A stretch of 64,000 bases of DNA from Bilabrum cf. latius (taxonomy: Eukaryota): the NCBI GenBank assembly GCA_965178125.1, contig CBCXTV010000001.1, positions 124,001-188,000 of the forward strand. Direction: 5' to 3'. Position 1 is the stretch's first letter, and each line of letters starts with the position of its first letter. Below, one piece after another: positions 11,785 to 50,882 of this stretch. Position numbers and translations under genes: made by a program. The notes below the pieces were generated by a model. The model had not been told where the DNA came from. It made no database searches and was given only the letters and a program-made list of their open reading frames with translations.

Positions 11785-12462
11785 GGCATGCTTGGGGCGG
11801 CACGTGGATCTTCGACGACGCCATTACGCTCAGCGATTGCGGGTCGAGGGTGCAGATCGACGCGCCGCAGTCGAAGGTCTTGGCGATGGTAATGCCCCGG
11901 AAGTCGGGCCAGTGGATTCCTCATAGGCTGCGCTCGCGTACGATCTGGTATTTGGGTGGGGAGCAGTCGGCCGTGATCACCAACCTCAAGTGCCAGGCCT
12001 GCCCCGGAAGTCGGGCCAGGGCATTCTCCGAGTCTCTTTGCCGATGATGTCTGAGGAGAAACCGTCCGAGAGCATTGCTGTTTCCTTGGGAGACGGCCGC
12101 AATCTTCGTGGGCGTCAAGGCGCCGGTAATATGGGAAACGAGGGCGGCATGTTGGCGCGCGAGGTCGACGCCCCGGCGGAGGGGGGGGGCCGTACGTGCC
12201 GTGACAGGTCGCGCCGGAGCCGGCGGAGGAGGCGACATGGACTTGCAACGCGTGCCAGGGCCTAAGCCCCGGTCAGAGTACTTCAAGAAGTGGAAGGACT
12301 GGATCCAACCAGTTTGCCGGGTGTGTTACGACAAGTTCGACAGCGCGACGCCGTGGTGGGTGAGGTGCAAGAACTGCAAAAACGAGTTTCCGGCGTACCG
12401 ATTTCCCCAGATCCGCCGGAAGAGGGACGGGCCTCGATCTCGGAAAGGGCGGGAGTCCGTTC

Positions 12463-13785
12463 TTGCATTCGGAATGGGCGGGGAGTTGCTTTTCCTGGGA
12501 GCATGTGCGAGATTCCTTCTCCGCGGGTCCTCTTTCGGCTTCGGCAGTCAGCAGCGCACTCTGCGGGAACGGCATTCTCCGAGTCTTTTTGCCGATGATG
12601 TCTGAGGAGAAACCGTCTGAAAGCATTGCTGTTTCCTTGGGAGACGGCCGCAATCTTCGTGGGCGTCGAGGCGCCGGTGATATGGGAAACGAGGGCGGCA
12701 TGTTGGCGCGCGAGGTCGACGCGCCGGCGGAGCACGCCGGCGCGGCGGCAAGCGTCGATGATTCGGGCGGCCCCCACATCGAGAGCGGCGGCGCGGAGGC
12801 GGCGTCCACGGGGATGCTCGGAGAGGAGAGCGGCAAGGCAGCGCCGAAGGAGGACGCCGAAGACGACGGCGGCAAGAAGACGGAGGAGGAGGATGCTCGC
12901 GGCGGTGGACGTGCTGTGGTGCCCGGAGGTAATGACGACGTATGGACCGACGCAGCAGCTTGGAAGGCGGGTGGCGGCGTGGCAGCCGGGGCGGTCTCTG
13001 GCGCTGATAGCTGGGCTCTATGGGGGACCCCTGCGAAGTCGTCATGGGGGGAGACGTACGTGCCGCGGCAGGTCGCGTCGGAGCCGGCGGAGGAGGCGAC
13101 ATGGACTTGCAACGCGTGCCAGTGCTGCAAGCCCCGGTCGGCGTACTTCAAGAAGTGGAAGGACTGGATCCAACCAGTTTGCCGGGTGTGTTGCGACAAG
13201 TTCGACAACGCGACGCCGTGGTGGGTGTGGTGCAAGAACTGCAAAAACGAGTATCCGGCGTACCGATTTCCCCAGATCCGCCGGAAGAAGGAGAACTTGC
13301 GCTATTTCTTCCCTGAGGACTGGTGCGCGAAGTGCCTGGTTGCGCGTGGCTGGAGTCTCCATGATGTCCGTTCCTCTGCGGGTGAAGCGAAGCGTTGGGT
13401 GCCAAAAGCTGGCGCGAATACCGGTGACGGCGACAACGACGCTCGTGCTCCCGCACGCGACGAGCTTCCTGCAGGAGGCGCCGCCTCCTGCAGCAACGCC
13501 GTGCATCAGAGTTCTTCGCGTGACGAGGCCTTGGATGACATCAACCGGGCCATGGAGCTTCTCCGGAATGCGGAGAAATTCATCTCCGCGATGCCATCGT
13601 GCATGCAGTGTGCGGTGCAGGACCAGTTGATGCAGGGCATCGTCAAAGACCAGGCCCTCTTGGATATCTTCTCCGGCAAGATAACGGACTGGATCAAATA
13701 CCATCCGGCCACTCTTGGGGCGATCCAATCCTATCGAAACGCATGGCTGTGGGCCGACGGAATGGCTCATGGTTGTCGAGGATGA
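12463..13785 (+). CDS. Chimeric paralogue of the 430-aa zinc-finger gene fused to pieces of the 354-aa and GT-like genes
   Basis: Near-identical to the 1399..2691 product up to MELL.NAE, then QCAVQDQLMQG (354-aa ORF) and IVKDQALLDIFSGKITDW (910-aa ORF), all in frame. Confidence 0.6.
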   Translation: MHSEWAGSCFSWEHVRDSFSAGPLSASAVSSALCGNGILRVFLPMMSEEKPSESIAVSLGDGRNLRGRRGAGDMGNEGGMLAREVDAPAEHAGAAASVDDSGGPHIESGGAEAASTGMLGEESGKAAPKEDAEDDGGKKTEEEDARGGGRAVVPGGNDDVWTDAAAWKAGGGVAAGAVSGADSWALWGTPAKSSWGETYVPRQVASEPAEEATWTCNACQCCKPRSAYFKKWKDWIQPVCRVCCDKFDNATPWWVWCKNCKNEYPAYRFPQIRRKKENLRYFFPEDWCAKCLVARGWSLHDVRSSAGEAKRWVPKAGANTGDGDNDARAPARDELPAGGAASCSNAVHQSSSRDEALDDINRAMELLRNAEKFISAMPSCMQCAVQDQLMQGIVKDQALLDIFSGKITDWIKYHPATLGAIQSYRNAWLWADGMAHGCRG

Positions 13786-15124
13786 TATCGAACCTCGCGA
13801 AGCATGCGTGGATCGGCTACTCGTAGTTCTTCACGCCATCGCGAAACCCCAAGGTGACGCAGATGGCCATGTTAGCGGGGTCAGAAGCACCGAGAATGGT
13901 CAGCCTCCAGCGCGGAAACTCACCTCATGCACAACTGCGAGCGCCTCTTGGACGTGCGGACCTATCCGGCGCACTGGGTAGACAACACATTTGTGGTCCC
14001 CTTCCACGTGGGCATGGGCCTAAAGTGGTATCTCATCAGCCCGGAGGGGAGGAAGGCGCTCCTGAAGATGCGGATCCCGAACCGAAGCTTCGAACGCTGC
14101 GTCTGGCGCCGCATCTTCGACACGTTCCAAGGGCCGGTATGTAATGTCCGTCGTGATGTCCGTGTGCGCGGCCCTGAGTTGGGGGGTTGTCTCGTCTGGG
14201 AAAAAACAGAGCGCGTGCCCATCTCCTACGAAGACTTGTGCGGTGTTCACGAGCACGCCGGCGAAACCTCGAGTTTTGGCATCAAGATCGTGTCGCGGCC
14301 AGGCTGTACGACGGCGGCAAGAAGACGGAGAAGGAGGATGCTCACGGTATCGCCCTGATCATCTGCACGACTTCGTGGGGCTCCATGACGTAACGGCGAG
14401 CGAGAACATTGACTGGTGGCGTGGCTGGAGGATCTCGGGAACACACGGCGGGCGAGCCGTTTTTCAAAAGGAGCACGGGTCCTTCGGGACGCCATTTCAC
14501 TTACGGCGGGCGAGCCGTTTTCCGAATGGTGCGGGGGTCCTACTGATGCACACGGCGATCGCTGGTTCACTCACGGCGGGCGAGCCGTTTTCCGAATGGT
14601 GCGGAGTCCTCCAGATGACCACGGTGATGGGTGGCAGCATGTCATAGGCGCGCCGTCGGAAGCTTCCCCTTCGAGTGATGCCTAAAACTGAGAAACCTGG
14701 AGATCCTAGCATCGTATGGAGGCAAGAGGTAACACCTTGGGGTCCGTTCTCCGCTTCAATTCCTGTCCCAAATCCGATTCCCATTTCGAGACCGAAAAAG
14801 GTGACCCGGAAAACGACGGTACTTATTTCTGAACCGTTTTCCGGACGCTTTCCGGGTCTCCCATGTGACCGCTTTTTGCGTACCGAAACACGTTCCGCGC
14901 GTGAGGAGCAGATGCGGATCTCCGCGGGGTCCTATTTGTGTCTTTTTTCGGGGACGAAATCGGGCGCACTTCTCGTGCCGATTTGTGGTCGTCTCTGAAA
15001 CCGGCTGCGAGTCGGGAAAGGTGCCCGAGATGCTTGTGTCCTTGGCTTCGTATTTCTCCGCATATTCTTCAAACGCGGGCGGCAGTGGCTCCTGCGCGGG
15101 AGCTTCCCGAGTGGGTCCGTCGTG

Positions 15125-15321
15125 CAGTGCGCTGGGTAGGTCCGCAGGTCAAGGAGGCGCTCGCAGTTATAGACGTAGGTGGAGTTTGCGAGCTGCCGGC
15201 CGACATGCTCATGTGGTGACCGGAGGTCACCACATGAGCATGTCGGCCGGCAGCTCGCAAACCCCACCTGCGTCTATAACTGCGAACGCCTCCTTGACCT
15301 GCGGACCTACCCAGCGCACTG
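15125..15321. repeat. Long inverted repeat (97-bp arms, 3-nt loop)
   Basis: 15125-15221 is the reverse complement of 15225-15321 with 3 mismatches; loop GGA. Confidence 0.93.
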
Positions 15322-15401
15322 AGCAGACAACGCATTTGTGGTCCCCCTCCACGTCGGCATGGGCTTGAAGTGGTACCTCAGGAGGATTTCACTTGCGCCG
15401 G

Positions 15402-16305
15402 CCCCCAGGATTTCGCCAAAAATGGCCGATCCGCACAAGGAATTTAAGTTGCGGCGACACAGCTCGGACCCTGGCTTTTTTTTGGCTGTTTCGGGGCCCC
15501 AAGAGGGCTCCCGGCCCCAAAAAGGGCAAAACGCGAGGTTGTGGTGGAAAAAATGGGCCCCAAGGAGTCTCCAAACGACGCAAAACGCCACGTTGTGGTG
15601 GATTTTAGAGCCCCTAAATCGCCCAAAAAAGACGCAAAACGCCACGTGGTGGTGGATTTTAGAGCCCCTAAATCGCCAAAAAAGACGCAAAACGCCACGT
15701 TGTAGTGGATTTTAGAGCCCCTAAATCGCCCAAAAAAGACGCAAAACGCCACGTTGTGGTGTTTTTTTTGAGCGTTTTCGGGGGGCTCGGAAGGGGACCC
15801 CCCCAGGATTTGGCCAAAAATGGCCGATCCACACAAGGACTTTAAGTTGCGGCGACACAGTTCGGGCCCCGGTTTGTTTTTGCGGTTTGGGGGCCCCGAG
15901 AGGGCTCCCGGCCCCAAAAAGGGCAAAACGCGAGGTTGTGGTGGAAAAATGGGCCCCAGGCAGCCCCAAACGACGCAAAACGCCACGTTGTGGTGGATTT
16001 TAGAGCCCTAAATCGCCCAAAAAAGACGCAAAACGCCACGTTGTCGTGGATTTTAGAGCCCTAAATCGCCCCAAAGAGACGCAAAACGCCACGTTGTAGT
16101 GGATTTTAGAGCCCCTAAACCGCCCTAAAAAGACGCCAAACGCCACGTTGTGGTGTTTTTTTTGAGCGTTTTGGGGGGCCCGGAAGGGGACCCCCCCAGG
16201 ATTTGGCCCAAAATGGCCGATCCACACAAGGAATTTAAGTTGCGGCGACACAGTTCGGGCCCCGGGGTTTGTTTTGCTGTTTGGGGGCCCCAAGAGGGCT
16301 CCCGG
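15402..16305. repeat. Higher-order satellite: 53-54-bp monomers inside ~395-bp units
   Basis: GACGCAAAACGCCACG monomers at 15577, 15631, 15684 and 15738, then again from ~15970; CCCCAGGATTT..CCAAAA.TGGCCGATCC at ~15402, ~15801 and ~16194. Confidence 0.92.
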
Positions 16306-19124
16306 GAGGCCCTAGAGTGGCCCTTCTCCGCTTCAATTCCTGTCCCAAATCCGATTCCCATTTCGAGACCGAAAAAGGTGACCCGGAAAACGACGGTACT
16401 CTCCGTCACTCCATCTGGCGGCGAAAATTGCCTCAGTTTCCGGTCCCCGATTCCGGGCCCAGGGACCCCCGAAATTCCCGATTCCGCGCAGTGCCGAAAG
16501 CTCGACATAAACCACAAACACGACACACAACACAACACGATAGCGCCTCCCCACGCGCGGGATTGGGTCCTTCCGCTCGCTGCATGTGAGCTGCAGTGTG
16601 TTCTTGCCGGGAATGTCACTGGAAGTCGCGCTGCAGTCTGCTCAGGGCGCCTTATGACCATGAAGGCGTCTCAGCACCCGCGACGGCAAGAGGGGGCACG
16701 CACGACGTTGCGAAGCACCCGCCCTGGGTGAAGAAACTGCGTATCCACAGGAGTCACGTTCAGGTGCGCGAGAATTGGAAAGGCGGGGTAACTGGTGCAG
16801 AGGAGCTTGTTCGCAGCGCGGCTTCCACCAGCGCCGCTGACGGTAAGATGCATCGGTCTCGGTACATGAGTCGGCACGGTGTTGCGTGATTGACTTCACG
16901 ATGCGGGAGTGTGCAGCCTTCCGCAGCGGGAGAATTGTATCTCCCCACGACCGCCGAAAAAAAAAAGAAGGCTATGCTGGACTCGTTCCAGGGAAGGCTA
17001 TGCGATGAGTATCTCTAGGCGCTTTCCGGAAGACCCACCCACTACACGCTGGTCAGCCCTCCCAAGCGGGAGTGAACCGCGGATCCGCGGGCCCGTGAGC
17101 GCTGCTGCTACGATCATTTCTGCCCGTTTGACTCTCGCCCACTCTTGCCGTGACCAAAGACGCGCAGATCCTTATGACGCATGACACCTCGTCGAGGTGT
17201 CGAGACTGCCTCACATTCCCGTTACAAAGACCCACAGCACTGCGACAACGAAATCGGTCACGAAGAGAGCAAGAGGCCGCGCACCTGAGCATCACAAAAA
17301 CCCCGAGAGACATAAACAACACCGTCCCGTGAAGTCCCTGCGACGAGGGGATGCTAAGCGGCTCCCACGGCGGCTCCTCTGCGGGAAAAGCTGCCGCAGA
17401 CCTCGAGATGGGATGCACATGACTGCGAAGATTGCGGAACTCGTCCGAAGCCGGTCGCACGAGGGTCACAGCGAATGGAGGCATATCTATGAAATAGAGT
17501 CTGCGTGCAAAGCAGCATTCCAACGATCGTCCGCATTCTTCCGAGCAAATCCTTGGGAGCACACATCCTGCGGACGACATCTCTTTTCTATCCACCCCAG
17601 CGTACTCCCCGCACACACTTCTCGCGAATGATTGAGAATTCTGTGCGGCACATGTAATATCAGGCTACCATGATACGCGGAATGGCGTGCTATTGCTCGC
17701 ACGTTCGTGCGCCCCCTTCCGAATGCGCTTACCACATCACTATGTTCGTCGGCAACCGTATACACCGTAGGGGTCTTCCCTCCGACACCAAGCGTACACG
17801 ACTGGCCGTAATAGCGCAGCGTAGATGTTTCGGACGTCGCCCAGGACAAGTGTCGACGCCCGGTTCGTCACGATCACTACGTGTGCACTTCACTCACCGC
17901 CCTCCAGCCGCTAGACTTCTTTTGGAGCGCGACATCCTACGACGCGCTATGACACGTAGCCGTAAACCGCAGACGGCCTCGCGTTCACTGCTTGCAGCGC
18001 AAGAGCGTGAACAAGAACCGCCCGCGTGGCACACCTTCGCAGGCGCGGAAGACAAAAAGTTCCTTCTAAGCTTGTATTCGGGTCCGAAAGCCAAATTCCA
18101 CTTCGGGGTCGAGAAGGGCGACCCGGGAAATCACCGTACGCTCTGTGAATCCATTTCCCGGGGAAAGTCCCCGAGTTCCCGCTACCCGGTCCCAGGCCCA
18201 GCGACCCAGGAAAGTTCCCGTCCCCCCGCATGCGGAAACCTCCCACGAAGCACGCCCACCTCACGCTTCACACGCAAAAGTCCAGGAGTCAAATCCATTC
18301 CGGACCCAGCAGTTCACCCCCCGTGACGATTGGGAAAGGCTCTTGCACACACCTTCTCGTCCGAGCAGTCTATGGAGCACACACCTGTCTTCGTTGCCTT
18401 TTCCGGCCAAAAATGCAGGGAGTTCGAAGGGGAAGTAGCAAGCGCGGAAGACCGCTTTCGAAACGCAGGTGCTCAGGGAAAAACAACCAGAGCGTCCCTG
18501 ATCCTCGGCAGAGCCGTCCAGGAGGGACGGGCACGGACGGGCATCGCAGATCTTGCAGCGCCACCATTCGCCGGGATGGGCGACCGGACGAGGGCGACCA
18601 CAAGTACGTAGCGTGCGACGTCCGTCAGTCGCCATGTTGCGCTGATTCGCTTTCGCGGCACGACTTCCAGGGCCGGCCTTACTCACTCCTCGGAGTCCGC
18701 GTGTGGATTCTCCCCTGCGCATGATCTGCCGCTCTAGATGCTACACAAAGATCCCGCTCGGATGACCCCCTCTGTGCATTCTGCAAGATTTTACGCGCCT
18801 CCATTCAATGCGCGAAGCATGCACCGCAGCAGTCTGAGTCCGGTGACCACCTTCAATAGCGTGGGACAAATTCCGTCCGCGATGTGCATTCGGGCATGCT
18901 CCCCTTTCCGAGTCTCTGTGACCCGTAGTGCGTCCGCGGCCAACGACTCAGGACTCCACGATGGTACGCACGAGTTGCATTCCTTGCACGAAGCGTGCGG
19001 AGAGAAAGCGATGCTCAGACATCGAGGCGCTTGGAGGGTCTGCACGCGACATGCTTCGAGAGGCCATGCAAACATGCGAAACCAGAACTGAGGTTCCTCA
19101 TCGTTCCTGCTGTCGAGCGCTCAA

Positions 19125-21857
19125 TTGGGGCATCGGATCAGGACGAAGCTCGCGAAGAGAGGGCGCGGGTGTCCCCATCCAAAAATCCGCCGCCTTCAAG
19201 GCTCATGTTCCCGGATCCTGCATTCGCGAGTTTCGGGAGCAGAAGTGCAAGATCGCCGCTGGACACACAGCGCATGCCATTTCCCGTCTCTGGAGATGTC
19301 GGGCTTCCAGGCGCAATTCGGACACCATCGCCAGGACCTCGGGAAGATGACATGTCTGCTGATCTGCAGGGAAGAGTCCCGCTTCGAGGAGTGGCGACAA
19401 AAAAAAGGGGCGCGAGAACTCCACGAGCACATGGGAGCGGTCCTTCGGCTCCCCAATCCAGTGTTTCCGCAGACCGACAGGGACCCAGATGGACGCGACA
19501 TCGTCAAAGACCAGGCCCTCTTGGATATCTTCTCCGGCAAGATAACGGACTGGAGCAAATACAATCCGGCCACTGTTGGGGCGATCCAATCCCATCGAAA
19601 CGCATGGCTGTGGGCTGAGAACCACACGCCGACGGAATGGCTCATGGTTGTCGAAGATGATATCGAACCTCGCGAAGCATGCGTGGATCGGCTACTCGTA
19701 GTTCTTCACGCCATCGCGAAAAACCCCAAGGTGACGCAGATGGCCATGTTAGCGGGGTCAGAAGCACCGAGAATGGTCACCCTCCAGCGCGAAAACTCCA
19801 CCTCCATCCACAATTGCGAGCGCCTCTTGGACGTGCGGACCTATCCGGCGCACTGGGTAGACAACACATTTGTGGTCCCCTACCACGTCGGCATGGGCCT
19901 AAAGTGGTATCTCATCAGCCCGGAGGGGAGGAAGGCGCTCCTGAAGATGCGGATCCCGAACCGAAGCTTCGAACGCTGCGTCTGGCGCCGCCTCTTCGAC
20001 ACGTTCCAAGGGCCGGTATGGAAGTGGGGAGATTGCCTCCGCATGACATCTGTGCTGGCAGCCAGCCCGGTCCTCGCATCGACTCCCGAGAGCATGGACA
20101 CGGAGTGGGGGGGCTCGGGACGACGAAGTGCGGATGCAGGGCACAGTATGAAACCGTACATAATGGTCGACCCGAGTGACGACTGGACTCTTGGCGAGCG
20201 ATTAAACACATTGTCCGTCGTGATGTCCGTGTGCGCGGCCCTGAGTTGGGGGGTTGTCCTCGTCTGGGAAAAAACAGAGCGCGTGCCCATCTCCTACGAA
20301 GACTTGTGCGGTGTTCACGAGCACGCCGGCGAAACCAACACGTTCGTCCACCTCCTCCAGGACAAACGCGGCGGGTCGTATTCGTACTTCCTGAGGTACG
20401 GAGACATCCGCATCCACGTGGTGCAGCCGATGATGTGCATCCCCACCCTCGACAGAATGCTCGACATGGTAGCCCTGAAGAGGCCCAAGATGAACACCCT
20501 GCCTCCCTTGAAATGGCAGACCGCTCGATGGATCCAAGTCAAGCAGAAGTGGATCGATAAACTCCACACGGAGATGCCGGGGGCCGAGCTGCCCTCATGG
20601 CTGGAGTGGCCACCCTCAACCCACGCGCTTGTCCTCTGCGACGACAGGGACTTGGCGGCGCACTGCCTCGAGGGGAGATGCCAAAAGGAGCAGCAGGAGT
20701 GGATGAACGACGGGAAGGACAACAGCATCCAGCACTACATCCTTGAGGCAAAGCAAGCGCTGCAGAACGAGTTGGAAGACATCCTAAAGGGGGACAGCAG
20801 CTCACGCCTCGTCGTGATCCGCATGACAACCAAACTGCTGGGACAGGTCTGGGTGGACATGATGAAGCACCTCACGAAGCAGTTCGGGAAGCGCATCATA
20901 ACGCCAACGTTCCTCCTCCCGAAAATGATCCCCAAAAGGAGGCACGACGAAAAGAACCCGAGTGATGATTGGATTACTTGGGGAGCATCCTTGGCGAAAA
21001 CCGTGGGCCTCCTCACGCTCATACCTCCGATGCAAGTGCACTATCCCATCATGAGCTGGACCGTGGCCTGGAACCACTTCATGTTTAAGGGCAGGACTGC
21101 CACGGACACCGTGATCCCAGACGTCATCCGAACTCTGTACGCTCCGCACAAGAGCAACAGGAAGCAGCTCCTCAAGAACGGCCCGCTGTGCCAGACGAGG
21201 CGCGCCGTGCTGGACTCGCCCGCACTGCGGGACATTGCGAACAACTACTCAAGGGCCAAGGACAAGACCTATAACCTCTTGAGTTATTCCAAATGGTTTG
21301 CCGAAGAAGCCATGTGGCACATGATCAAGTACGCGGAAAGCACGCAGTGCATCGTCGACCCGTTCGTGAGCCGCCAGTGCCAAAAGGTCTTCGAGCACAT
21401 CCCCTCGGACGACATCGGCCATGCGGACGCCCGGCTCCGGTACAACCTTCAGGATGCCGACGACCGAGGTTACCGCTTCAACGCGGGGCATCTCTACACC
21501 GCGGTGCAGGGCATCAAAACGGTGAACATCGCATACAACAAGTGGCTCACCGAGCAGGCACAGAGTCATTCCGAATGGAGCTGGGGCAAAACGTTCATCA
21601 AGCTTGTGATCAACCAGTGGCGGCAGCAGCAGGGCAGTGAGCCGTATGACGTGGACGAGGAGGACTACGTGAGCCTTCCGCGGACCTTCCACGGGAATTC
21701 GTTGAAGCTCGCGAGGAGCGTAAGCCTCCAGGACACGAGATCCTGCTCCAGATCGTCCTCATCCTATTCCAGGTCGCCCTCCACCAACAGGACTGAGGCA
21801 CAGCCTTCGAAGAGAGCGCGCCTGACCCCGGCACCCGGCGTAAAGCACGAGCCCTGA
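19125..21857 (+). CDS. Large protein with an N-terminal GT25-like glycosyltransferase domain and a possible second GT-like domain
   Basis: 910-aa ORF; SHRNAW...WLMVVEDD and YLISPEGRKALL match the GT25 pattern SHxxxW...LILEDD / YxISxxGAxKLL. True start is probably downstream of 19125. Confidence 0.65.
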   Translation: MGHRIRTKLAKRGRGCPHPKIRRLQGSCSRILHSRVSGAEVQDRRWTHSACHFPSLEMSGFQAQFGHHRQDLGKMTCLLICREESRFEEWRQKKGARELHEHMGAVLRLPNPVFPQTDRDPDGRDIVKDQALLDIFSGKITDWSKYNPATVGAIQSHRNAWLWAENHTPTEWLMVVEDDIEPREACVDRLLVVLHAIAKNPKVTQMAMLAGSEAPRMVTLQRENSTSIHNCERLLDVRTYPAHWVDNTFVVPYHVGMGLKWYLISPEGRKALLKMRIPNRSFERCVWRRLFDTFQGPVWKWGDCLRMTSVLAASPVLASTPESMDTEWGGSGRRSADAGHSMKPYIMVDPSDDWTLGERLNTLSVVMSVCAALSWGVVLVWEKTERVPISYEDLCGVHEHAGETNTFVHLLQDKRGGSYSYFLRYGDIRIHVVQPMMCIPTLDRMLDMVALKRPKMNTLPPLKWQTARWIQVKQKWIDKLHTEMPGAELPSWLEWPPSTHALVLCDDRDLAAHCLEGRCQKEQQEWMNDGKDNSIQHYILEAKQALQNELEDILKGDSSSRLVVIRMTTKLLGQVWVDMMKHLTKQFGKRIITPTFLLPKMIPKRRHDEKNPSDDWITWGASLAKTVGLLTLIPPMQVHYPIMSWTVAWNHFMFKGRTATDTVIPDVIRTLYAPHKSNRKQLLKNGPLCQTRRAVLDSPALRDIANNYSRAKDKTYNLLSYSKWFAEEAMWHMIKYAESTQCIVDPFVSRQCQKVFEHIPSDDIGHADARLRYNLQDADDRGYRFNAGHLYTAVQGIKTVNIAYNKWLTEQAQSHSEWSWGKTFIKLVINQWRQQQGSEPYDVDEEDYVSLPRTFHGNSLKLARSVSLQDTRSCSRSSSSYSRSPSTNRTEAQPSKRARLTPAPGVKHEP

Positions 21858-22731: not shown

Positions 22732-23202
22732 ATGGCGAGCGACGCAGAACCGGAGGACGCAATGCGGCTCGACTCCCCTAGAGATGCGGATGCAGCGGCG
22801 CCACCCGAAGCGACGGAGGCAGGATCACAGAAACCAGATCATGCGCAGCAGTTCTTCGAGGAGCCCTGCCCGAAAGACGGACACATGGAAGCGCTAGAGA
22901 AGACCGCCAAGACGGACGAACCTGGCGACACACCCTTGTTCGTCGACAAGTGGACGGCAGCGATCACACGCCTTACCGAGGAGCGCAAGGCTCTCAAGCT
23001 CGAGCAGCGGGCTAAAACGAAGGCCATCCGCAAAACCATCCGGCAGAAAAGGCGCACCATGAAGAACGCCAAAAAACTCACAGACGACGAGCTCGCCCAA
23101 ATCGTGCTAGACAGGAAGATCTTGCAGTTGGTGCAAAAAGAAGAGATCGCAGCACGCAGCTCCGCCAACTCCTCAACGAGCCAGGCGAAGTCGACCTTGT
23201 GA
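22732..23202 (+). CDS. Small basic coiled-coil protein upstream of hairpin A
   Basis: ATG 22732 (MASDAEPED) within ORF 22375..23202; acidic N-terminus then RLTEERKALKLEQRAKTKAIRKTIRQKRR...LTDDELAQIV. Confidence 0.6.
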   Translation: MASDAEPEDAMRLDSPRDADAAAPPEATEAGSQKPDHAQQFFEEPCPKDGHMEALEKTAKTDEPGDTPLFVDKWTAAITRLTEERKALKLEQRAKTKAIRKTIRQKRRTMKNAKKLTDDELAQIVLDRKILQLVQKEEIAARSSANSSTSQAKSTL

Positions 23203-23623
23203 GAAGCGCTTCCCGTGTTCAGAGAACCGAGGATTACAGATAGACCCCGCGTCACAGAAGCCATCGCAAGAGGGCAGAGCGTCAAGTACAGCGCAGTCTT
23301 GACGGACACAGATAGCCCGAGCAGCACAAAGCAGCGGATGCGGCTGCCCAGCGGAGTCGCGCACTCGGACAGCATACACGGGACGTGCTGGCAGAAATCA
23401 CTCAGTCCGCGAGCACCGTCGTCAAGAGCACGGGAGGGGCAGACTCGACATGCACAACTTTGAAAAACGGGAGGGCACGAAAGGAAGACAAATTTGGCAT
23501 TAATCCTTGATTACCCCCGCCCCCCCGTAGAATCAGAGCGAGGAGATATGCTCGGAAGGTCCGGGGGGCAGTCGCAGAAAAGTGCACGCGAAAATAAGAG
23601 GAAAGGAGACCCCCCAAACCCAC

Positions 23624-23687
23624 GTAGTGCGACCCTCGGGGGTACCCTCTAAGGTACTAAGAATCCTTCCCCCGAAAATCGCACTAC
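23624..23687. promoter_or_regulatory. Stem-loop A, candidate rolling-circle origin
   Basis: GTAGTGCGA (23624-32) pairs with TCGCACTAC (23679-87); inner CGGGGG/CCCCCG and GTACC/GGTAC; ~690 bp upstream of rep. Confidence 0.6.
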
Positions 23688-23723
23688 ATCGGTCCCTGGC
23701 GTCGGGGAAAGCGGAAAAAAGGG

Positions 23724-23868
23724 GAGCACTACCGTGAAAAAATCCTGCATTTTACAGGAAAATCGGAGCACTACGTGTCAAAAACTGGGGGTTTTTGAGG
23801 TTTTTTTTCCAGAAAAACGGCATTTTTTTATGTAAAAACCGCGCGAAACGAGCACTACCGAGCACTAC
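23724..23868 (+). repeat. Iteron-like GAGCACTAC direct repeats (4x)
   Basis: Copies at 23724, 23766, 23850 and 23860; share GCACTAC with the hairpin arm; spaced by A/T tracts. Also at 50919..51063. Confidence 0.75.
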
Positions 23869-24376
23869 ATCGCCTCCTCCAGTCGTGTTTCGCATTTTTT
23901 TCGCTGGCCGAAAATGTCTCCGAAGGCGCTGCCTCGAGGGGGGGTTCCGATGGCTGATTTTGGGCGTTCTGTTGTCGATTTCGCGTGCATTTCAGGTTGT
24001 CGGCGAGGCCTTTTTGGCGTATGTCGCAGTTCGGATGCCCTCGAACGTCGTGTCTCATGTGGTATTCGCCGGTTTCTATGTTGGAGAAGGCGGTCGGTCG
24101 ATCATCCTCTCTGGCAGGCTCCGAAGTGCGTTTGTGATCGTGCTAATTGCAACGCCATGCTTTCCTTCGTTGGCTTCGAGAATCCTTCCCTCGGAAGCGG
24201 TAGTACCTCGCCCAGGGCGGCACGAGCTGCAGACTCAGCTGCCTCGGTGCTCATGTGTGTCCCGTGTCAGCAGTTTCGGTGTTACGAACAGCAAGGATTC
24301 TGGGCATTGCGTGTCGGAGGCAAGTGTTCTATCTTGAGGCATTCCGCGATTCGTCGAAGGATTATTTGCGCAAATA

Positions 24377-26662
24377 ATGTCGGCTCCGTTCAAGGGCGAA
24401 ACGATGAGTTTGTCTGTTGCCGAGTCGCTGAAGTCCCGAGTCGCATCCTGCTCCTGGGATCCCGCGTGGGTTTCCGCGAGCTGCGTGCCGTGCGATGGCC
24501 TCCCCACAAGCCAGGAGTCAGAAGCGTCCACGACGGCGACCTCTGCTTTGTTAGGGGTGTCCGAGGCGTCCCCAACGTGCTCGTGTGGCCTCGGTGTCTC
24601 CAATTCGGTGGCTGCAGCGCGCGCGGCCGCTGTCCCGAGTTTTGGCTTTGACGATGCGGAGAACGACTTCGACGCCAGTCTCGACATGATTGAGGCCTCA
24701 TGCGAGGTCGCATGCGAGGCAGAATGCGAGGGCGATCCGGGAGCCTGCTTGTTGTCCCACGGCAAGTCGAGCGGTCAGTGGCAGATCGGCGTAGTGGGTG
24801 AACGAGTCCTTTATGAGGGCCTCAGCGTTGAGGGCGACATTCCTGGCCGCGTTGCTGCCTCCGAAGCGCTCGCCGCGGGTGTCATCAATTTGGAACCCCC
24901 GTCAGAGGAAGTACTTTTGCCGGTGCAGCTTCTGCGGAGTAGTCAAGGTTACCGTGGGGTTCTGCCCATCGAGGATTCTGCGCCCGATGCGAGGGGGCGA
25001 CCGCAGATGCTCATGCTCCCCGATTTCGTGCCCCGCGTGAAGAGGCGGCGTCTTCGGCAGAAGTGCGACCCTGCTGAGGGCGATGCAGCACCGAGTCTTG
25101 CGGCTCATCTCGGACCTCCGCCCGCGGCTCGTGCCGCGGCCGGAGCGTCTGGGCCGCAGCGCTCGACTGGAAGGCCTTCGACTCGTCCTATTGATAGTGT
25201 CATCTATCGTCTCCTGCGGGTTTTCCCTGACGATTTCAAGTTGGCGTTTCCGGCGTCGGTGTCACACCAGCGGAAGCGGTGCCTCATCAGGGAGGCGCTT
25301 CGCAATGTACCCGGTGACCGCATGTGCATCTTGAAAGACTGGGCTGCGGGGGCGGAGGACACTCCTTGCCAGCTTCGTTTCGAGGAGCTCTTCCCGGAGC
25401 TTGCGCGGCAGCGGGACGAAGTTGTGAGGAATCCGGGATCGCACTCAGTGCCCGTGGGCGAGATTGTGCCTGCGTCCGACAAGAACACGAGGCGGGGAAG
25501 GGCCGTGATGCTTACCTTTCACGGTCGCTGGGGTGTCGAAAAGGAGCCTGTGCGCGACATCATGTCGGCATCCGTGGCAAGGGGCGTCCTGAGGCGATTG
25601 GTTCTCGCGTCTCCGTTCTATGTGGAGCTTTGGGCCACCTTCAAGGCATGGGCGCAGGACATCGCGCGGCGGATGATGTGGCCTCAGCTGTCCATGAAAA
25701 TGGAGCTCTCCCTGCACCGCAAGCACGCCGCAAACTTGGTGCACTTCCACGTATGCATGACGGATTCCGAGAAGTCGCATCGTTGTCGCGTGGCGGAGGA
25801 TTTCATGTGGGCCGGCAGCAGGCCGAATGTCGTCTACGGCTCCGGGCGGTCAGCGAAGGCGCAGGAACGTGGCGCGTCGGAGTTACACTATTATTGTCAA
25901 GCTCCCAAAGTCGGTGCGCTGCTTTGCGCCACGAACTACCGAGCCGGACGCGATTTCGTCGTCAATGGTAAGTTCGTGCACGCGTTGTTCGCACGCTTCA
26001 AAATGGATCCGGACGTCGCGAGAAGGGAACTCGTGGCGTATCGGTGTCGGGACGCCGAGAACTTAGTGCGCGCCATCGACTTCCACATACAGAATACCGC
26101 GGAGAGGAGAGAGGTGTGCGCGCAGGCCGCGGTGCACGTAGTGACGAAGCTCCGCCCCTTTAAGGTGGTGCCCGAAGTCGAGAAGTGGCGCGAGAGCTAT
26201 CGTCAGGAGTGGTTCGCGCACATGCGCTTCAAGTTCCTTGTCTTGGTGGGGGACTCCCGGTTCGGGAAGACAGTGTACGCGCGGAATCTCTTCGGGAGCG
26301 AAAGGACTCTTGTTGTGAACTGTCAGGGCAGTGTGGAACCTCCGCTCCGTGGCTTCGATCGAAGTCGGCATGTGGCCATTGTGTTCGACGAGGCAAATGC
26401 CCTGTGGGTCGTCAACAACAAACAGGTCTTTCAGGCTGGCCTTGACCCCTCCCTGCTCGGCCAGAGCAAGACGAACAGCCTCGCATACTCTGTGTGGCTC
26501 CACGGTATCGCCCTGATCATCTGCACGAATTCGTGGGGCTCTGACGTGACGGAGTCGGCGGACCGCGATTGGCTTGACAACAACTGCACGAAAGTGGAGG
26601 TGAAAGATCGGCTCTACTTCGACGAGGACTTGTTGTCTCTCACGGATGTGCAGAAGAGCTGA
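24377..26662 (+). CDS. rep: Rolling-circle replication initiator (HUH endonuclease + SF3 helicase), geminivirus/genomovirus-like, with a long N-terminal extension
   Basis: Motifs in canonical order: motif I (VMLTF), motif II (VHFHVC), motif III (HYYCQAPK), Walker A (GDSRFGKT), Walker B (IVFDE), motif C (IICTN), and C-terminal DWLDNNC resembling gemini/genomovirus Reps. Confidence 0.92.
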   Translation: MSAPFKGETMSLSVAESLKSRVASCSWDPAWVSASCVPCDGLPTSQESEASTTATSALLGVSEASPTCSCGLGVSNSVAAARAAAVPSFGFDDAENDFDASLDMIEASCEVACEAECEGDPGACLLSHGKSSGQWQIGVVGERVLYEGLSVEGDIPGRVAASEALAAGVINLEPPSEEVLLPVQLLRSSQGYRGVLPIEDSAPDARGRPQMLMLPDFVPRVKRRRLRQKCDPAEGDAAPSLAAHLGPPPAARAAAGASGPQRSTGRPSTRPIDSVIYRLLRVFPDDFKLAFPASVSHQRKRCLIREALRNVPGDRMCILKDWAAGAEDTPCQLRFEELFPELARQRDEVVRNPGSHSVPVGEIVPASDKNTRRGRAVMLTFHGRWGVEKEPVRDIMSASVARGVLRRLVLASPFYVELWATFKAWAQDIARRMMWPQLSMKMELSLHRKHAANLVHFHVCMTDSEKSHRCRVAEDFMWAGSRPNVVYGSGRSAKAQERGASELHYYCQAPKVGALLCATNYRAGRDFVVNGKFVHALFARFKMDPDVARRELVAYRCRDAENLVRAIDFHIQNTAERREVCAQAAVHVVTKLRPFKVVPEVEKWRESYRQEWFAHMRFKFLVLVGDSRFGKTVYARNLFGSERTLVVNCQGSVEPPLRGFDRSRHVAIVFDEANALWVVNNKQVFQAGLDPSLLGQSKTNSLAYSVWLHGIALIICTNSWGSDVTESADRDWLDNNCTKVEVKDRLYFDEDLLSLTDVQKS

Positions 26663-26907: not shown

Positions 26908-27759
26908 GTGTGTGTGTCTCCGCAGTGCCGCGGTTGGGACCCGGCGGGTCGTTTGCTTTTACGTCGCCGCGTCGCGCGCCGACGAGACATTTCTTGGTCT
27001 CAGAAGCCTCTGCTTCCGGTAGGCGCGCCGTGTACACTCGCGGGCCGAAGGTGGGTGCGTTGCTTGATGGCCTACGTCGGTATCGCCGATGCACCGTATG
27101 TGCCCGTGGTTGCCGCGTCGACCTCCGAGCACGCCCCGGAGGGCGAGGTGGAGATGATGCTTGCGCCTCTTGCCGGAGATGTCGGTTTCAAGCGGCCTCG
27201 CGTGTTTCCTCCCGGTTCGCGACTTCTTCCTAAGTCGCCGGCCCATCCGGCGGTGCTCATAACAGCGCTCGGCAGTGAGGCACCCCAGGACACACAGTGC
27301 GTCGTTTGGTCGGACTCTAAGGCTTTCGACCTCGCGGAGTTTGTATGCTCTTCCTGCGGCTGCAATCGTGTCATGGCGGACCTGAATCATCGTATGCGTG
27401 ATCGTCTCGTACGTCGCGTGCAGCGCACGCTTTATGCCGATGATTCTCCGTGCGGCAGGGGTGCGATTTCGTGTCGTGCTTGTCGCGAGAAGGCGCGCGA
27501 CGCGGCGCCGAAGACGTCGATTATGAACGCGGCGAACAAGAAGAAGATCTCGGGAACTCTTCGCATGCAGTTGGATCTCATTGTAGAGACCGGGGAGCGG
27601 AAGGGTCAGCGTTGTACTGCGGAGAAAATTCTGACATTGGGAACGATGAAGCAGCACAGGGTTTTCGAGAGGGACCTTTACGATGAGGCATGGCGCGGGC
27701 TTGTTCGTCTGTCTGGACGCGAGGCTTGGAGCGATGACGACTCGTGGTCTCCGCGTTGA
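26908..27759 (+). CDS. CxxC protein downstream of rep (likely start ATG 27067)
   Basis: VCSSCGC...ISCRAC pair; open frame of 283 codons. Confidence 0.55.
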   Translation: MCVSPQCRGWDPAGRLLLRRRVARRRDISWSQKPLLPVGAPCTLAGRRWVRCLMAYVGIADAPYVPVVAASTSEHAPEGEVEMMLAPLAGDVGFKRPRVFPPGSRLLPKSPAHPAVLITALGSEAPQDTQCVVWSDSKAFDLAEFVCSSCGCNRVMADLNHRMRDRLVRRVQRTLYADDSPCGRGAISCRACREKARDAAPKTSIMNAANKKKISGTLRMQLDLIVETGERKGQRCTAEKILTLGTMKQHRVFERDLYDEAWRGLVRLSGREAWSDDDSWSPR

Positions 27760-31509: not shown

Positions 31510-32047
31510 TCCTCGGCAGCTCCTGCATCGGAGCCTCCTGTCGAGATTCGATCGCGCAACGTCGTTCCTTACATTGCTTGCCGTCGCATGTGCCGGGCGG
31601 TGGTGGGTGTGCGTGTTCGCCGAAAGTTCCCGGCCTCGTCTTCCTCAGGAGAGCTCCTCGACCCGAAATTGGCAGCTCAGCGCTGCCGTGGCCGATACAG
31701 TACCCGTGCATGGCCAGTTGGCAGCTACGCGCTGCCGTTGCCAATGTCGTCCGCACGAGAGCAGAGTGGCAGCTCAGCGCAGGCGAGAAACCGCGCTCGC
31801 AATGCTGCGAGGTGTATTCAATGCTGTGCACGTGTCTATCCCTCTCCCTGGTTTTGTCTCGCTTGCGCCAGTGTGACCGCAGCAGAGCGGGTGCTTCCCG
31901 TGCGTCTTCAGCTTTGAGCACTCCTCCAGCGACAGGAAGGCATTCGCTTGCTCTCGCTCCCCGCCTGCGTCCTATCCCTCCCGGGTATCTTCAGAGGCCA
32001 CAGGCAGTGCGAAGCTTGGCAGCGGGTCCGTCCGCGTCGTTTCGGCT

Positions 32048-33685
32048 GTGAGCGATCTTCTGCCCGGTTCCTCACGCGTCATAATGTCCTCTGCTTCGGT
32101 GCCGGATCAGCTCGCACGGATCAGTAAGGAGCTGAAGTGTCTCAGAGACGCGAGACAACGGGCGCGCAATGGGCTGCGCCATCCGTGGTTGCGCGCCATG
32201 GAGGCACAGGTCGCTGAGGTTATTCGTCATCACCCCGGCGGTGGCGAGGCAGCTCTTCGAACCTATGTCTCTCGTCAGTTGCAGAGTCGACAGGTTTCCA
32301 CGCGGACGGCTTCGCAGGAGGAGTTTCAAAGGCAGGTCGATGAGGAGGTCGCGCTCACCATGAGGCGCCCAGCTGAGGCGTGGCAGCGAAATCCTCTTCG
32401 CTCATGTCATCGAGAGTCCGTGGCACGCGCAGAGACCTTTCTCGCCGAGGCTTCTGTCGTTGCTTGGATCGACCATGTGAACGAGCAGCGTGGGTGTGCT
32501 CCAACTGGGAACATGGTTTTCGCCATGCTTGCGAGGATGGGCGTTCGCGCGGGGAAGGACTCGGCTCGACGGCAGTGGCTCCTGCGCTTCCGTCGTCGTT
32601 GGCGGCTTCGGCATGGCCGATTGAAGAAGCAGCCCCCGGTAACACTCGATTACGTCAGACTCGCGTGTCGTGTCTTCTATCAGTGGATTGAATTCGCAGA
32701 AGCGCGAGTGCCCCCCAACCGCCGCCTCGTCTTTGTGAATTTCGATGAGTCCAGCGTGCCCTTTGCCTTTCCGGGAATGCGCGGGTACATCGCACCGAGG
32801 TCAGGAACGGAGCCCGCTTCGCTTGGTTCGCGCACGGAGCGCCTCGCCTCGAATAGCAATCGAGGATCGTACACCTTTCTGGGTTTTATTAGCGACTGCC
32901 CGGAAATCCAGCGACGACTCCCGCGTATACTCATCGGGAAGCACACGCGGCTGAGCAAGCGCTTGATGCGTGGGGCGCCGAACCAAATGGTGGACGGAAT
33001 GGAAGTCTGGGCCCGAGAGAGCTCGTGGGTGACGCAGTCCCTCATGTTCGACATTCTGCGTCGGCTTTTCGCTTCTTGGATGGACATTCAGCATGAGATC
33101 TATCCAATAGTGATACTTGACTGCGCGCCCCAACACATTTCCACTGAGATTGTGAACTTCGCACACGGCCTTGGCATGGATCTCGTGTTTATTCCTGGTC
33201 GACTCACCTTCCTGCTTCAGCCGTTGGACGTTCTCGTCTTTCAGCTTCTTAAGCGCGACCTTCGGGAGACGTGGATGCAGGAGCGCTCGCGTCATGAAGC
33301 GGGTCATGTCGATGTCTCTTGCCATCTCAGGGTTGTCGCTGAGTGCACGAAGAGAGTGCTCTCGTCTGGCTCGTGGCAAGGCGCTTTCGATATGACAGGC
33401 ATTACCAGCGGCAGGCGCCGCTTGCATTCGACCCTACGGCGCTTGTTTGAGTGTGACATGGAGGACATCTCCAGCGATGCTCCGTCTGTCGACCAGCTCC
33501 GCTTCATCAGCAGTCCGCAGCAGCCTCTCCCGCACGATGCGCTCATCAACAGGGCCCCAGTCGCGTCCGGACACGCGGTCGACGGAGGCGTCCACGGTGG
33601 TAACGCTCGCCGCGTGCCTCGTGGCCGCAGACTAAACGGATGGACCCCCCGCGATCGCGCTCACCCCTCGGCGGCCATGCCGTGA
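32048..33685 (+). CDS. pogo-family DD35D transposase, copy 2
   Basis: Same translation as 4853..6490. Confidence 0.92.
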   Translation: MSDLLPGSSRVIMSSASVPDQLARISKELKCLRDARQRARNGLRHPWLRAMEAQVAEVIRHHPGGGEAALRTYVSRQLQSRQVSTRTASQEEFQRQVDEEVALTMRRPAEAWQRNPLRSCHRESVARAETFLAEASVVAWIDHVNEQRGCAPTGNMVFAMLARMGVRAGKDSARRQWLLRFRRRWRLRHGRLKKQPPVTLDYVRLACRVFYQWIEFAEARVPPNRRLVFVNFDESSVPFAFPGMRGYIAPRSGTEPASLGSRTERLASNSNRGSYTFLGFISDCPEIQRRLPRILIGKHTRLSKRLMRGAPNQMVDGMEVWARESSWVTQSLMFDILRRLFASWMDIQHEIYPIVILDCAPQHISTEIVNFAHGLGMDLVFIPGRLTFLLQPLDVLVFQLLKRDLRETWMQERSRHEAGHVDVSCHLRVVAECTKRVLSSGSWQGAFDMTGITSGRRRLHSTLRRLFECDMEDISSDAPSVDQLRFISSPQQPLPHDALINRAPVASGHAVDGGVHGGNARRVPRGRRLNGWTPRDRAHPSAAMP

Positions 33686-34704: not shown

Positions 34705-35025
34705 GGGACCGCAGCGACAGTAGCGTCGCTTAGGTGAGGAGCGGGTGCCAATGCTCTTTTGAAAATGGTGTGTCGTACGTACGGCAGGAGCCGTCGGTGG
34801 GAGCGGGGCGGATCCTGCGGGAAGTCGTGGAGACTGAGGGCAGAGACTCTCGGGTCGGTCAGGGTCTCATGTAACGTGCTGTTCACCGCAGAGGTATGTG
34901 CGGATCTTGGTGGATCTCTCGAGGACATGGGTGGCATACCGTTGTGCATCCGTTCCCCGGGGGGGGCGGTCGCAGAAGAGTGCACACGAAAACAAGAGGA
35001 AAGGAGACCAACCCCCCAAACCCAC

Positions 35026-35089
35026 GTAGTGCGATCCTGGGGGGTACCCTATAAGGTACTAAGAATCCTTCTCCCGAAAATCGCACTAC
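35026..35089. promoter_or_regulatory. Stem-loop B, copy 2
   Basis: Same sequence at +27195. Confidence 0.55.
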
Positions 35090-38000
35090 CTCGGGCCACA
35101 ACGTCTTGGTGGATTCCTCGAGGACATGGGTGGCATACCGTTGTGCATCCGTTCCCCGTCGCTCCCTAACGTCTTCAGTGGCAGGTTCGGAAAAGACACC
35201 TCCGTAGGCACGCGACAAGTCCCGGTGAAGCGGGCTCGCACCGCGCTGGGCGGGAGATCGTGAGCGCTTAGAGGACCGGAGCTTTCGGGCGGGTGCGTGT
35301 CTCGACAAACTCCCTCTTGACCACGGGCGGGGAACGTGTAGGGCGGAAGCTAAAGACACCGTAAGTAGCGGAGGGCTAACATTCCGTCCTTCGGTGAGAG
35401 CCAAAAGTTCGAGTCTGCGAGAGACTATTATACGAAGTTCTCCCCTCCTCATACGTGCGCATAGCCTCCTCACGCGGTAGCGCGAGCGCGGGACCCGGAC
35501 CTGTCCCTGATGGGCGTGAATCTGAACCCGGCGTACTCTCCTAGTCTGTCACTTCCACGACCTTGTTGTCGCGGAACCACTTGCACGGAGAGGAACCTGT
35601 CGTTCAAGCGGGTGCAGCCGGACGCGCAGGTGTAGTGCATCGCCTTGCATATGTGCACGGCCAAGTAGATGCCGGAACCGTAGAGGTATCACACTTCCCG
35701 CGGAGCTTGGGTGGGTCTTTCGCTGCTGTCGTCTGCTCCAGAAGGTTTGCGCCAAAAACCGGAAAACTTCTAAGACAGAGGTGGGATGCCAGGAGCTCAC
35801 GGTCCTGCCGGATTGGGGAGGTCCATGCCCACGCGAGCCGGGTACGCGTCCAAATCAACGCACAGAGCGGGAGCTGAGGGCGCCAAGGACGCTCACTGTC
35901 AGGCACACACAACGCGCACAGAATTCGTCATTTCGCGTTCAAAGCCTGCCAACGACGTGGCGCTTGGCGAAATGTGGTGGGTCGCGAAGATGTGGTACTT
36001 CGCCGTGCCTTTCTCTATGACGGCCAAGCGTGCACTCGCCATCGCGCTCGGACGCCACAGGAAGAGATCCCAGCTCGCAGCTCCGCCGCCTCATCCAGGA
36101 GTAAGGCGAAGTCGAATCGTGAATAGCGCTTCGCACCTTCACAGAGCCGAGGATCACAGATAGGCCCCGCCTCACAGAACCCAGCGCCATAGGGCAGAGC
36201 GTGAAGTACCTGGCCGCTTGGCTTGGCCGGACCCCCGCCCGCCCTCCGCCGGCAGCTCCTCCCGTCCGTCCCTATGGAGGCAGATCCGCGTACCCATGCT
36301 GCGGCGGGATCCTGACACAATCCGCTCCTCTTAGTGTGTGGCCGTGGGGCATGAGTGGAGCAGCATCGGGCCCTCACCAGCCGTGGAACGGAAGCAGCTC
36401 TCCGTGCGGCAGCTGTGCGATGCACAGACCTCGTCCCAAAGATACGGATCCATTTTGCCGTCTTCCCGCGCATACTGCATCGCTCTGCAAAACTGCATTG
36501 CGCAGTGGATCCCCGAGCGTCGACTGCCAATAGCAGGCGGCCTCGCAAGGCCTTCATGGACGCAGGATTTGGGCTTCTTCATCGTAAATTTGGGGTCTGC
36601 TCAGCGCGCGAAAATTCCAACGCTTCAAAATGATCCGGACGTCGCGAGAAGGGAACTCGTTGCTTGCTCACCTGTGCGGAGGGGTTGGATGCCCGATGTG
36701 CTAAAGAGAGGATACTGTCCGTCGGCGTTCTCTCTTCACCTTGTGCGGAAGGGTTGGGTGCCTGATTTCAGACAGAGAAGGTCTCGTCCGTTGGGAGCGC
36801 TTAGGAATACTTCCGGATGGGGCGTCCAGACGCGGTCCAGGACCTCCAGCTCGTCGGGGTCAATGTCGCCCGCGCCGTCCGTGCCTTTGACGCCTCTGGA
36901 TCGATGATGCCCACGATCTTTGTCATCTCGGACGACACACGTCCCAGCTGCTCTTTGGTAGTGCATTACCTCATTGACCCCGAAGCGTTGAATATTTAAT
37001 GAAGACCCTTCGGAAGCTGGCGAAGTTTGTCAGCTTGTCGGAGCGCAGCCTGGGTCCTTGTCAACAAACATGGAGGGTTTCGGGGCGGATTTCCAGCGTT
37101 CCGCCTTGATATCGAGTGCACCTCGAGGTCGGGATCGAAGCGGGGCGGGCGGTTCGTCATCCTCTGTGATACGCTTAGGAGGCGCCGACTTGATGCCCAC
37201 CTTGTCCCCCAATCACTCCAGACGTAACTGGGGAACTCTTCCCGTCGTGGGCCGGGTACGCCTCCGAATCCCACGCGAGCCGTTCCCCACGGCGCACCGA
37301 TAAGCGCCGCTGCAAGCGTACCAAGAGGGGCGTACCAAGAGGTGCTTCCTTCGCTCGGCAGTGTGGCACTTCAAGCAGTAGAATGTGCCACTCCCAGCAC
37401 GTAGGTGGAGTTTGCGAGCTGCCGGCCGACATGCTCGTGTGGTGACCTCCGGCGCACCGATAAGTGCCGCTGCAAGCGCACCAATACTACTTCGCTTGGG
37501 AGCGAGGCACTTTAAGCAATGCAGTGCGCCGGTTTTCGTGCACGCCCGGTCGCGCGGACGCCGCAGGTGGCTTGGCCGTAGGATAGAATTAGTGGCGGGT
37601 CGGTTTTGCATGTCTTCCCTCTCCTCTTGATATGGTACACAAAGGCAAGAGCCTGACGATGCAGACGGAACTCCTGGATTTCACCGCCACATTCCTAGTC
37701 AAGACAGCCCTCGACTAAACAGACGCCGAGTTATCTTGAGCAGCATCCCACGACGCAGTGATGTGGACGGCAAGGGTGATGCCATGCTTTCCGGGCCTCC
37801 CATGTGACCGCTTTTTGCGTACCGAAACACTTTCCGGGGTCGACGCCCCGGCGGAACACGCCGGCGCGGCGGCAAGCGTCGATGTTGCGGGCGGCCCAGC
37901 CATGAGGTACATGATCAAGTACACGGAAAGCACGCAGAGCGTCGTCAATCCGTTCGTGAGCCGCGAGTTCCAAAAGGTCTTCGAGACATCCGCCCGGAAA

Positions 38001-50818: not shown

Positions 50819-50882
50819 GTAGTGCGACCCTCGGGGGTACCCTCTAAGGTACTAAGAATCCTTCCCCCGAAAATCGCACTAC
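50819..50882. promoter_or_regulatory. Stem-loop A, copy 2
   Basis: Same sequence at +27195. Confidence 0.6.

Follow-up and report, generated by a model that had tools for sequence, protein, structure and literature searches.

The virion-strand origins of geminiviruses, circoviruses and nanoviruses consist, in passages of PMC7826260 and PMC13696870, of a hairpin with a nonamer-type loop beside a rep gene, whose product combines a single-tyrosine (Y1) histidine–hydrophobe–histidine (HUH) endonuclease with a superfamily 3 (SF3) helicase; direct repeats lie between the hairpin and rep. The same arrangement is found in the window, the whole 64,000-nucleotide stretch of DNA analysed here, where a 27,195-bp unit repeats in tandem (copies 99.94% identical); it comes from contig C44 in a eukaryotic assembly of 48.6 Mb (G000). 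Upstream of the rep of this unit lies a hairpin, termed hairpin A, followed by four GAGCACTAC direct repeats. Judged from the sequence and its relatives, hairpin A and the four repeats probably form the replication origin of a 27.2-kb mobile element, capsid-less insofar as none was recognised, which is amplified into circles or head-to-tail arrays and whose host is most likely a dinoflagellate. The viral loop sequence TAATATT(AC) recurs in the relatives of this element. Compared with geminivirus-type origins, described in part of the literature with stems of 9–11 bp and loops of 10–13 nt, the window has a 16-bp stem plus extensions and a loop of 26–46 nt. Compared with geminivirus-type replicons, the loop is non-canonical, the unit reaches 27 kb, a DDE gene is present and no capsid is recognised, and the Rep differs in a 370-amino-acid low-complexity N-terminal extension and the lack of a Pfam match.

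In composite self-replicating transposons such as Teratorn, and in Polintons and casposons, a replication module is joined to an integrase or transposase; in the window, this module is a Rep of the CRESS DNA virus type (viruses named for circular, single-stranded DNA that encodes a Rep) with a putative nicking hairpin. Cressdnaviricota share with the window a Rep with a single-tyrosine HUH domain and an SF3 helicase, and an origin hairpin beside rep, but their genomes measure about 1–6.5 kb in the passages of PMC10581178, compared with the 27,195-bp unit of the window and 13.7–25 kb in its relatives. Geminivirus satellites and defective DNAs, in part of PMC13696870, lack rep and keep the hairpin, as do the deletion units of the present element. 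The pCRESS and Pyropia pulchra plasmids, too, have a CRESS-like Rep and are capsid-less replicons, integrated or free, as the present element may be; they are bacterial and red-algal, and the passages of PMC6668415 describe no dinoflagellate DDE coupling, comparable size or arrays. Replitrons and Helitrons, like the window element, are eukaryotic mobile elements with an HUH protein. According to the passages of PMC10288648, Replitrons have no helicase, whereas the window has an SF3 helicase, and Helitrons use a Y2 Rep with an SF1B (Pif1) helicase, whereas the window has a single invariant tyrosine, an SF3/AAA+ fold and a separate DDE gene.

Hairpin A and its relatives

Hairpin A is built from a 9-bp outer stem (23624–23632/23679–23687) and a 7-bp inner stem (23636–23642/23669–23675), both sharing the centre 23655.5 inside TAAGGTACTAAG (23650–23661). 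The extended arms (23618–23642/23669–23693) are 80% complementary, and in the minus-strand fold G–T pairs take the place of the internal mismatches and leave it almost continuous. The four GAGCACTAC copies after hairpin A are the only ones in the 27.2-kb unit, and their GCACTAC is also present in the 3' arm (23681). From one start to the next the distances are 42, 84 and 10 nt, equivalent to 4.0, 8.0 and 0.95 helical turns, a phasing noticed post hoc. An earlier sequence-only reading had described the 9-bp outer stem, the inner stems and four repeats sharing GCACTAC with the arm, all of which were recovered; the A/T tracts that it saw between the repeats are present except between the last two, which are 1 nt apart.

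In 2000 dinucleotide shuffles of 23555–23868, no 9-mer occurred at least three times. The 90-nt hairpin A fold has z-scores of −4.9 (plus strand) and −5.4 (minus strand) for the best of 13 shifts, none of 100 shuffles being equally stable, and in an unbiased scan of the unit hairpin A ranks second among 1,360 80-nt windows; the whole 341-nt stretch folds more weakly (z −1.9/−3.0). Hairpin A and the four repeats are real features beyond chance. No Rfam match was found in 7000–36000, nor any sigma-70 promoter, the model for which is bacterial and has no bearing on a eukaryote. At 24179–24210, 520 nt downstream, the right half of hairpin A recurs in degenerate form (75%).

Five further lineages with an intact rep exist in the same assembly (C58; C73/C59/C89; C55; C50/C102/C52; C61), with Reps 26–31% identical and units of 13.7–25 kb, four visibly tandem at 13.7–21 kb and C58 with a 25-kb repeat. 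In the window and all five, a coiled-coil gene, a hairpin and rep follow in that order on one strand, and a DDE_1 gene lies within the unit. The hairpin of each relative (z −2.3 to −9) has an AATATT apex and is situated 0.5–1.4 kb past the coiled-coil motif and 1.2–1.7 kb ahead of the HUH motif. Hairpin A therefore sits at the origin position, because the relatives carry hairpins between the same two genes; conservation beside rep homologues, which the sequence-only reading had set as a test, was thus found in five of five lineages. The arms of the relatives have no sequence in common. Read on the strand opposite rep, the apex of each of the five is nonetheless NAATATT^AA, with TA following the site in variant C59; on the rep strand, the apex of C58 is the geminivirus TAATATTAC, the canonical nonamer. 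TAATATT occurs once or twice per unit in the relatives, and 7–8-mers derived from the arms recur less than 400 nt away in four of the five (uncorrected p 5e-5 to 5e-3). Among 26 other small contigs (first 10 kb or whole), no intact-rep lineage beyond these was found. Rep patterns gave no relative in IMG/VR, where two 17-mer matches lack the stem, and a single 1.9-kb match in a set of prokaryotic metagenome-assembled genomes.

The composition of the strands also points to this position. From hairpin A onward, the surplus of G+T relative to A+C on the rep strand declines steadily round the unit (rho −0.86), and at hairpin A it is reset. The largest skew jump of the unit lies 35–225 nt from the loop in five of the six rep lineages (window, C58, C73, C50 and C61) and at the loop itself in the rep-less C101. 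Divergent transcription cannot explain the skew, because all recognised genes share one strand. The skew indicates that strand-asymmetric replication has long begun or ended at hairpin A.

The Rep itself resembles the CRESS-type Reps. It has no match in Pfam or PHROG and no PDB relative by sequence; a profile search collected 2,360 clusters (50% identity) at E<=0.001, 712 of them at E<=1e-30. Motif I (25508), HUH (25739), YxxxK (25889), Walker A (26249), Walker B (26378) and motif C (26516) were located, and 104 homologues show little or no variation in the E residue, the HUH histidines, the single tyrosine, Walker A/B and motif C. The structural model (predicted local distance difference test score, pLDDT, 92) matches, at 10–16% identity, AAV2 Rep68 and a redondovirus Rep from the PDB as well as CRESS Reps from BFVD, and a protein language-model search likewise places it beside CRESS-type Reps. 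A second rep variant, about 85–88% identical over 25816–26017, occurs in runs X3, X11 and X12 and was not found as a contig in the assembly.

A second hairpin of the unit, hairpin B, is 89.8% identical to hairpin A over 137 bp and recurs at about 34961–35097 and 62156–62292. Iterons and a skew jump are both absent there, so hairpin B could have arisen as a copy only recently or could serve as a secondary origin. In the assembly, 108 matches to the hairpin pattern exist; the 100 listed all lie on small contigs (C44 onward), in a single orientation per contig, with A and B mostly alternating. Hairpin B is the sole hairpin of rep-less 13.8–15.6-kb units on C44, C99 and C104; C99 and C104 each contain exactly one unit with its end joined to its start, and collapsed arrays would look alike. 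In C101, a 5,947-bp unit derived from the C50 lineage (copies 100% identical) retains the hairpin, the coiled-coil gene and the DDE region and has lost rep. All complete units examined carry a hairpin, and the unit-to-unit deletions map to internal repeats. The arrays may be chromosomal, may be concatemers or may reflect the assembler's walk round circles, each of which is compatible with the data.

Candidate nick sites in the loop

The canonical nonamer had been reported absent by the sequence-only reading, and a search of both strands in and near hairpin A, in which TATTAC was not found, agrees. The NANTATT^AC nonamer of CRESS origins does not occur in the window loop, where only one-mismatch sites were found. 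The loop, non-canonical as that reading said, is less alien than the novel nick site that it proposed: within 46 nt, four sites are one mismatch off NANTANT^AN compared with 0.25 expected, one of the four lacking T−1. The same reading had favoured the core conserved between hairpins A and B as the best candidate. All candidate sites do lie within this core, but the conservation is weak evidence; the shared 12-nt core is unremarkable because A and B differ at just 4 of 64 stem-loop positions.

In the substrates described in part of PMC7826260, the DNA bends via a T−4:A+1 pair together with an A−3/T−1 contact. The plus-strand site AGGTACT^AA (23652–23660) retains T−4, A−3, T−1 and A+1 and, like canonical loops, places T−4 at the centre of the hairpin; a nick at 23658/23659 is tentatively the first choice. 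The minus-strand site TCTTAGT^AC (23662–23654; nick at 23656/23655) is the closest of the candidates to TAATATTAC (6/9) and lies on the same strand as the conserved NAATATT^AA of the relatives; it is a somewhat less likely choice. The minus-strand site GATTCTT^AG (23665–23657), which cuts the same TpA as AGGTACT^AA, would rank slightly lower again. A fourth site, 23658–23666, matches the becurtovirus nonamer TAAGATTCC at eight of nine positions; TAAGATTCC is a natural nonamer variant of becurtoviruses and Eragrovirus in the passages of PMC13696870, and shows that nonamers can drift. This match is off-centre in the window hairpin and may be a coincidence, and a plus-strand nick at 23664/23665 appears improbable, as does a nick at some other site. 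Mapping of the nick point through A/B hybrids was tried and gave no hybrid junction; copies of hairpin A hold patchy B-type alleles, resembling conversion.

Proposed mechanism and alternative explanations

In the proposed mechanism, the GAGCACTAC repeats, which are in helical phase, would be bound by Rep together with the matching arm, and the stem would extrude as a cruciform. The HUH/tyrosine site would then, as family knowledge suggests, nick a TpA step in the loop, and the SF3 helicase would drive rolling-circle synthesis. Incomplete resolution may generate the observed concatemer-like arrays and the rep-less, hairpin-keeping derivatives, which would be replicated in trans, while the DDE protein probably integrates the element.

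Several observations weigh against this assignment. In C55, no skew jump exists at the hairpin, and a skew that crosses zero suits bidirectional replication equally well and does not tell the strand. The loop core is invariant, which is uninformative because the copies are 96–100% identical overall, and a matrix built on the loops of the five relatives reaches a best score of only 2.4 bits in the window loop. A/B hybrids with exchanged flanks are expected, because a Rep starting at one hairpin and finishing at the other would make them; none was found in 33 plus 15 copies, nor any joint at the hairpin in the four sequencing runs examined. Furthermore, iteron-like repeats were not found in C58, nor TAATATT in C75, a lineage with DDE and a decayed rep. 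In a quick Rep tree of 58 rows, the five TAATATT lineages form a clade separate from the Rep of the window (support 99), and the metagenome loci L073–L076 (from a scan that gave six loci) end short upstream, without the origin position of the window's clade. The same tree groups the window's Rep with P0001, P0002, L074 and a Symbiodinium protein, which places it in another subclade, with a changed loop.

Among the alternatives, the one that survives best keeps the origin and takes the replicon as a true virus, large CRESS-like or polinton-like virus (PLV)/mriyavirus-like, with a capsid too divergent to be recognised and arrays that are concatemers or endogenous copies. The Rep is akin to cressdnavirus Reps, the glycosyltransferase cargo to giant-virus proteins, and PLV-sized viruses of 20–30 kb with HUH genes exist, according to part of bioRxiv 10.64898/2026.06.19.733378. 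No capsid family was found among the open reading frames (ORFs) scanned, with libraries that miss the Rep too, so that Pfam could also miss a capsid; neither a double jelly-roll capsid nor an A32-like packaging ATPase was recognised in general scans, which included no dedicated profiles. Yet the ORFs common to the lineages are those of the Rep, DDE, coiled-coil, zinc-finger and glycosyltransferase-like proteins, and for the zinc-finger protein the model shows not a jelly roll but a small fold of the alpha/beta kind (pLDDT 64), with no fold match at Z>=5, which says nothing on novelty. A virus is accordingly rated as rather unlikely.

A DDE transposon offers a different origin for the palindrome, and a distinctly less likely one. 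The joint of its two inverted ends would yield an imperfect palindrome with an AT-rich centre, the flanking arm-derived repeats would be subterminal transposase sites, and Rep would be cargo or act elsewhere; all six lineages code for a DDE_1 protein, of the pogo/Tc1-mariner type, and skew would reset at element ends too. Against this, the CRESS nonamer core is kept at the centre across lineages with unrelated arms. In the 11 contig stretches mapped to the unit, no element/host junction was found at the hairpin, and no host junction was recovered from which terminal inverted repeats or a target-site duplication could be read. Such a joint is not exclusive of an origin, as integration may open the element within its origin. 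Least likely, by a narrow step, hairpin A would be a degenerate relic or a purely regulatory rep operator/promoter, with arrays spread by recombination or another lineage's Rep, in keeping with a loop without AATATT, the lack of hybrid junctions and deletions at internal repeats as homologous recombination gives, but hard to combine with a rep frame intact in 44 of the 45 top full-length matches (100 of 195 candidates scored), the copy number of the window's lineage, by far the highest, the skew reset at A, the four near-canonical loop sites and a hairpin in every complete unit examined.

The hairpin beside rep in all five relatives thus supports the sequence-only reading of a geminivirus-type origin. 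The replicon, in contrast, is not of geminivirus size but a Rep+DDE element of 27 kb. The origin probably works like a CRESS origin, and the element family is apparently undescribed. No account of Rep+DDE elements in dinoflagellates was found in the literature covered by the search (Repbase, subscription journals and supplements lay outside it); the passages of PMC9651163, on viral invasions of Symbiodiniaceae, contain no CRESS or Rep term, and those of PMC10581178 mention Symbiodinium for RNA viruses only. The chances appear evenly balanced that these elements form an undescribed class of dinoflagellate self-replicating transposons or nuclear plasmids, 6–27 kb and capsid-less, with a geminivirus-type hairpin, a CRESS-type Rep, DDE integration, satellite-like rep-less units, rDNA-like copy numbers, an origin specificity that diverged between Rep subclades (TAATATT versus the window loop) and several incompatibility groups per host. 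If so, the geminivirus-type origin would extend from 1–6-kb viruses to 14–27-kb dinoflagellate elements, a Rep+DDE architecture would join the known HUH replicons, and a large Rep family unseen by Pfam would be exposed. Six Rep/origin pairs in one assembly, one with a changed loop, would let the evolution of origin specificity be tested directly and supply candidate orthogonal HUH tags. Elements of this kind may also add to dinoflagellate genome size and tandem amplification.

Probable host and gene content of the element

Two unrelated nuclear 18S genes exist in the assembly, on the chromosome-sized C12 and on the small contig C95. The C95 gene matches the dinoflagellate primers Dino18SF1 (one mismatch) and Dino1662F (exact), given in the passages of PMC3248434; the C12 gene matches neither. 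No hairpin, rep or DDE match lies on C1–C43 among those listed or scored (100 of 108 hairpin, 100 of 195 rep), and all 87 DDE matches (93 of 93 candidates scored) are on small contigs, C44 onward. Ownership of the element by the assembled organism is unlikely, with no match on C1–C43 among those listed. Symbiodinium proteins are the only named Rep homologues; rep and a DDE domain are combined in five of 11 such gene models, one model covers two reps, and a single 75-kb scaffold carries several. Ten public runs listed, with six coded organism labels from six studies, hold at least half of the words of the stretch. Of the four runs examined, three have 22–30 of the 30 bins covered and one also contains hairpin B, while run X14 (share 0.07) was rejected as a holder with only 4 of 30 bins covered. 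No RNA run among those listed holds the stretch, a share of 0.00 being no proof of absence. Neither a spliced-leader motif nor DVNP was found in the assembly, which is uninformative in a search that had no positive control. The small contigs probably represent high-copy DNA, alone assembled, of a co-sequenced dinoflagellate and not of the assembled organism.

The features of the unit are collected in Table 1. A profile of the coiled-coil gene from five lineages gives a single match (E 2e-4) among the 522 frames of the unit.

Table 1. Coordinates of the features in the window.
Feature	Position	Strand	Remarks
Mosaic built from short, rearranged fragments of genes of the element itself	7900–16400	.	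Length varies between copies
Hairpin B cassette (iteron-free copy of hairpin A)	7766–7902	+	Flanked by 55-bp direct repeats, 7710–7764/7909–7963
Glycosyltransferase-like cargo ORF (GT25/GT11-like)	19125–21857	+	Weak leads
Small coiled-coil gene	22732–23202	+	Always upstream of hairpin; homologous in 6/6 lineages
Purine-rich tract 5' of hairpin A	23563–23617	+	Duplicated along with hairpin in cassette B
Hairpin A (proposed nicking hairpin)	23618–23693	.	Fold, positional homology, skew jump
Loop core with all candidate nick sites	23650–23666	.	Invariant among 100 listed of 108 copies in assembly
Four GAGCACTAC direct repeats (proposed Rep-binding iterons)	23724–23868	+	Starts 23724, 23766, 23850, 23860
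rep, 761 amino acids	24377–26662	+	HUH endonuclease and SF3 helicase
Zinc-finger (CxxC...CxxC) ORF	26908–27759	+	After rep; homologues follow rep in L073, L074, C50
DDE_1-family transposase-like ORF	31877–33685	+	E 2.7e-11; homologue in all six lineages
Next tandem copy, hairpin A and iterons	50750–51063	+	Unit period 27,195 bp

Glycosyltransferase-like ORFs recur as cargo in C55, C58, C61, C50 and C75, and their atlas neighbours are giant-virus GT25/GT11 proteins (scores 0.89–0.90, leads only). In C73, a cargo ORF without a Pfam match (L037:3314–4516, minus strand) contains an FHGT motif, presumably that of ADP-ribosyltransferase folds. C75, a seventh lineage, is a 14,660-bp GC-rich tandem unit with DDE, a rep remnant only and long GGGCCC-type repeats. 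Another repeated family extends over several contigs (C51, C54, C77, C83 and C90; L067, L069, L105, L108 and L113) and has a 740-amino-acid ORF without a Pfam match. The pieces of the mosaic measure 34–1169 bp and resemble defective-interfering DNA, and similar mosaics are present in C55 and C58. Within it, nested tandem repeats of about 400-bp and 53-bp units with A/T tracts occupy 15402–16305, and a near-perfect inverted repeat (15125–15380), derived from an inverted piece of the glycosyltransferase-like gene, forms the strongest fold of the unit (z about −14.6).
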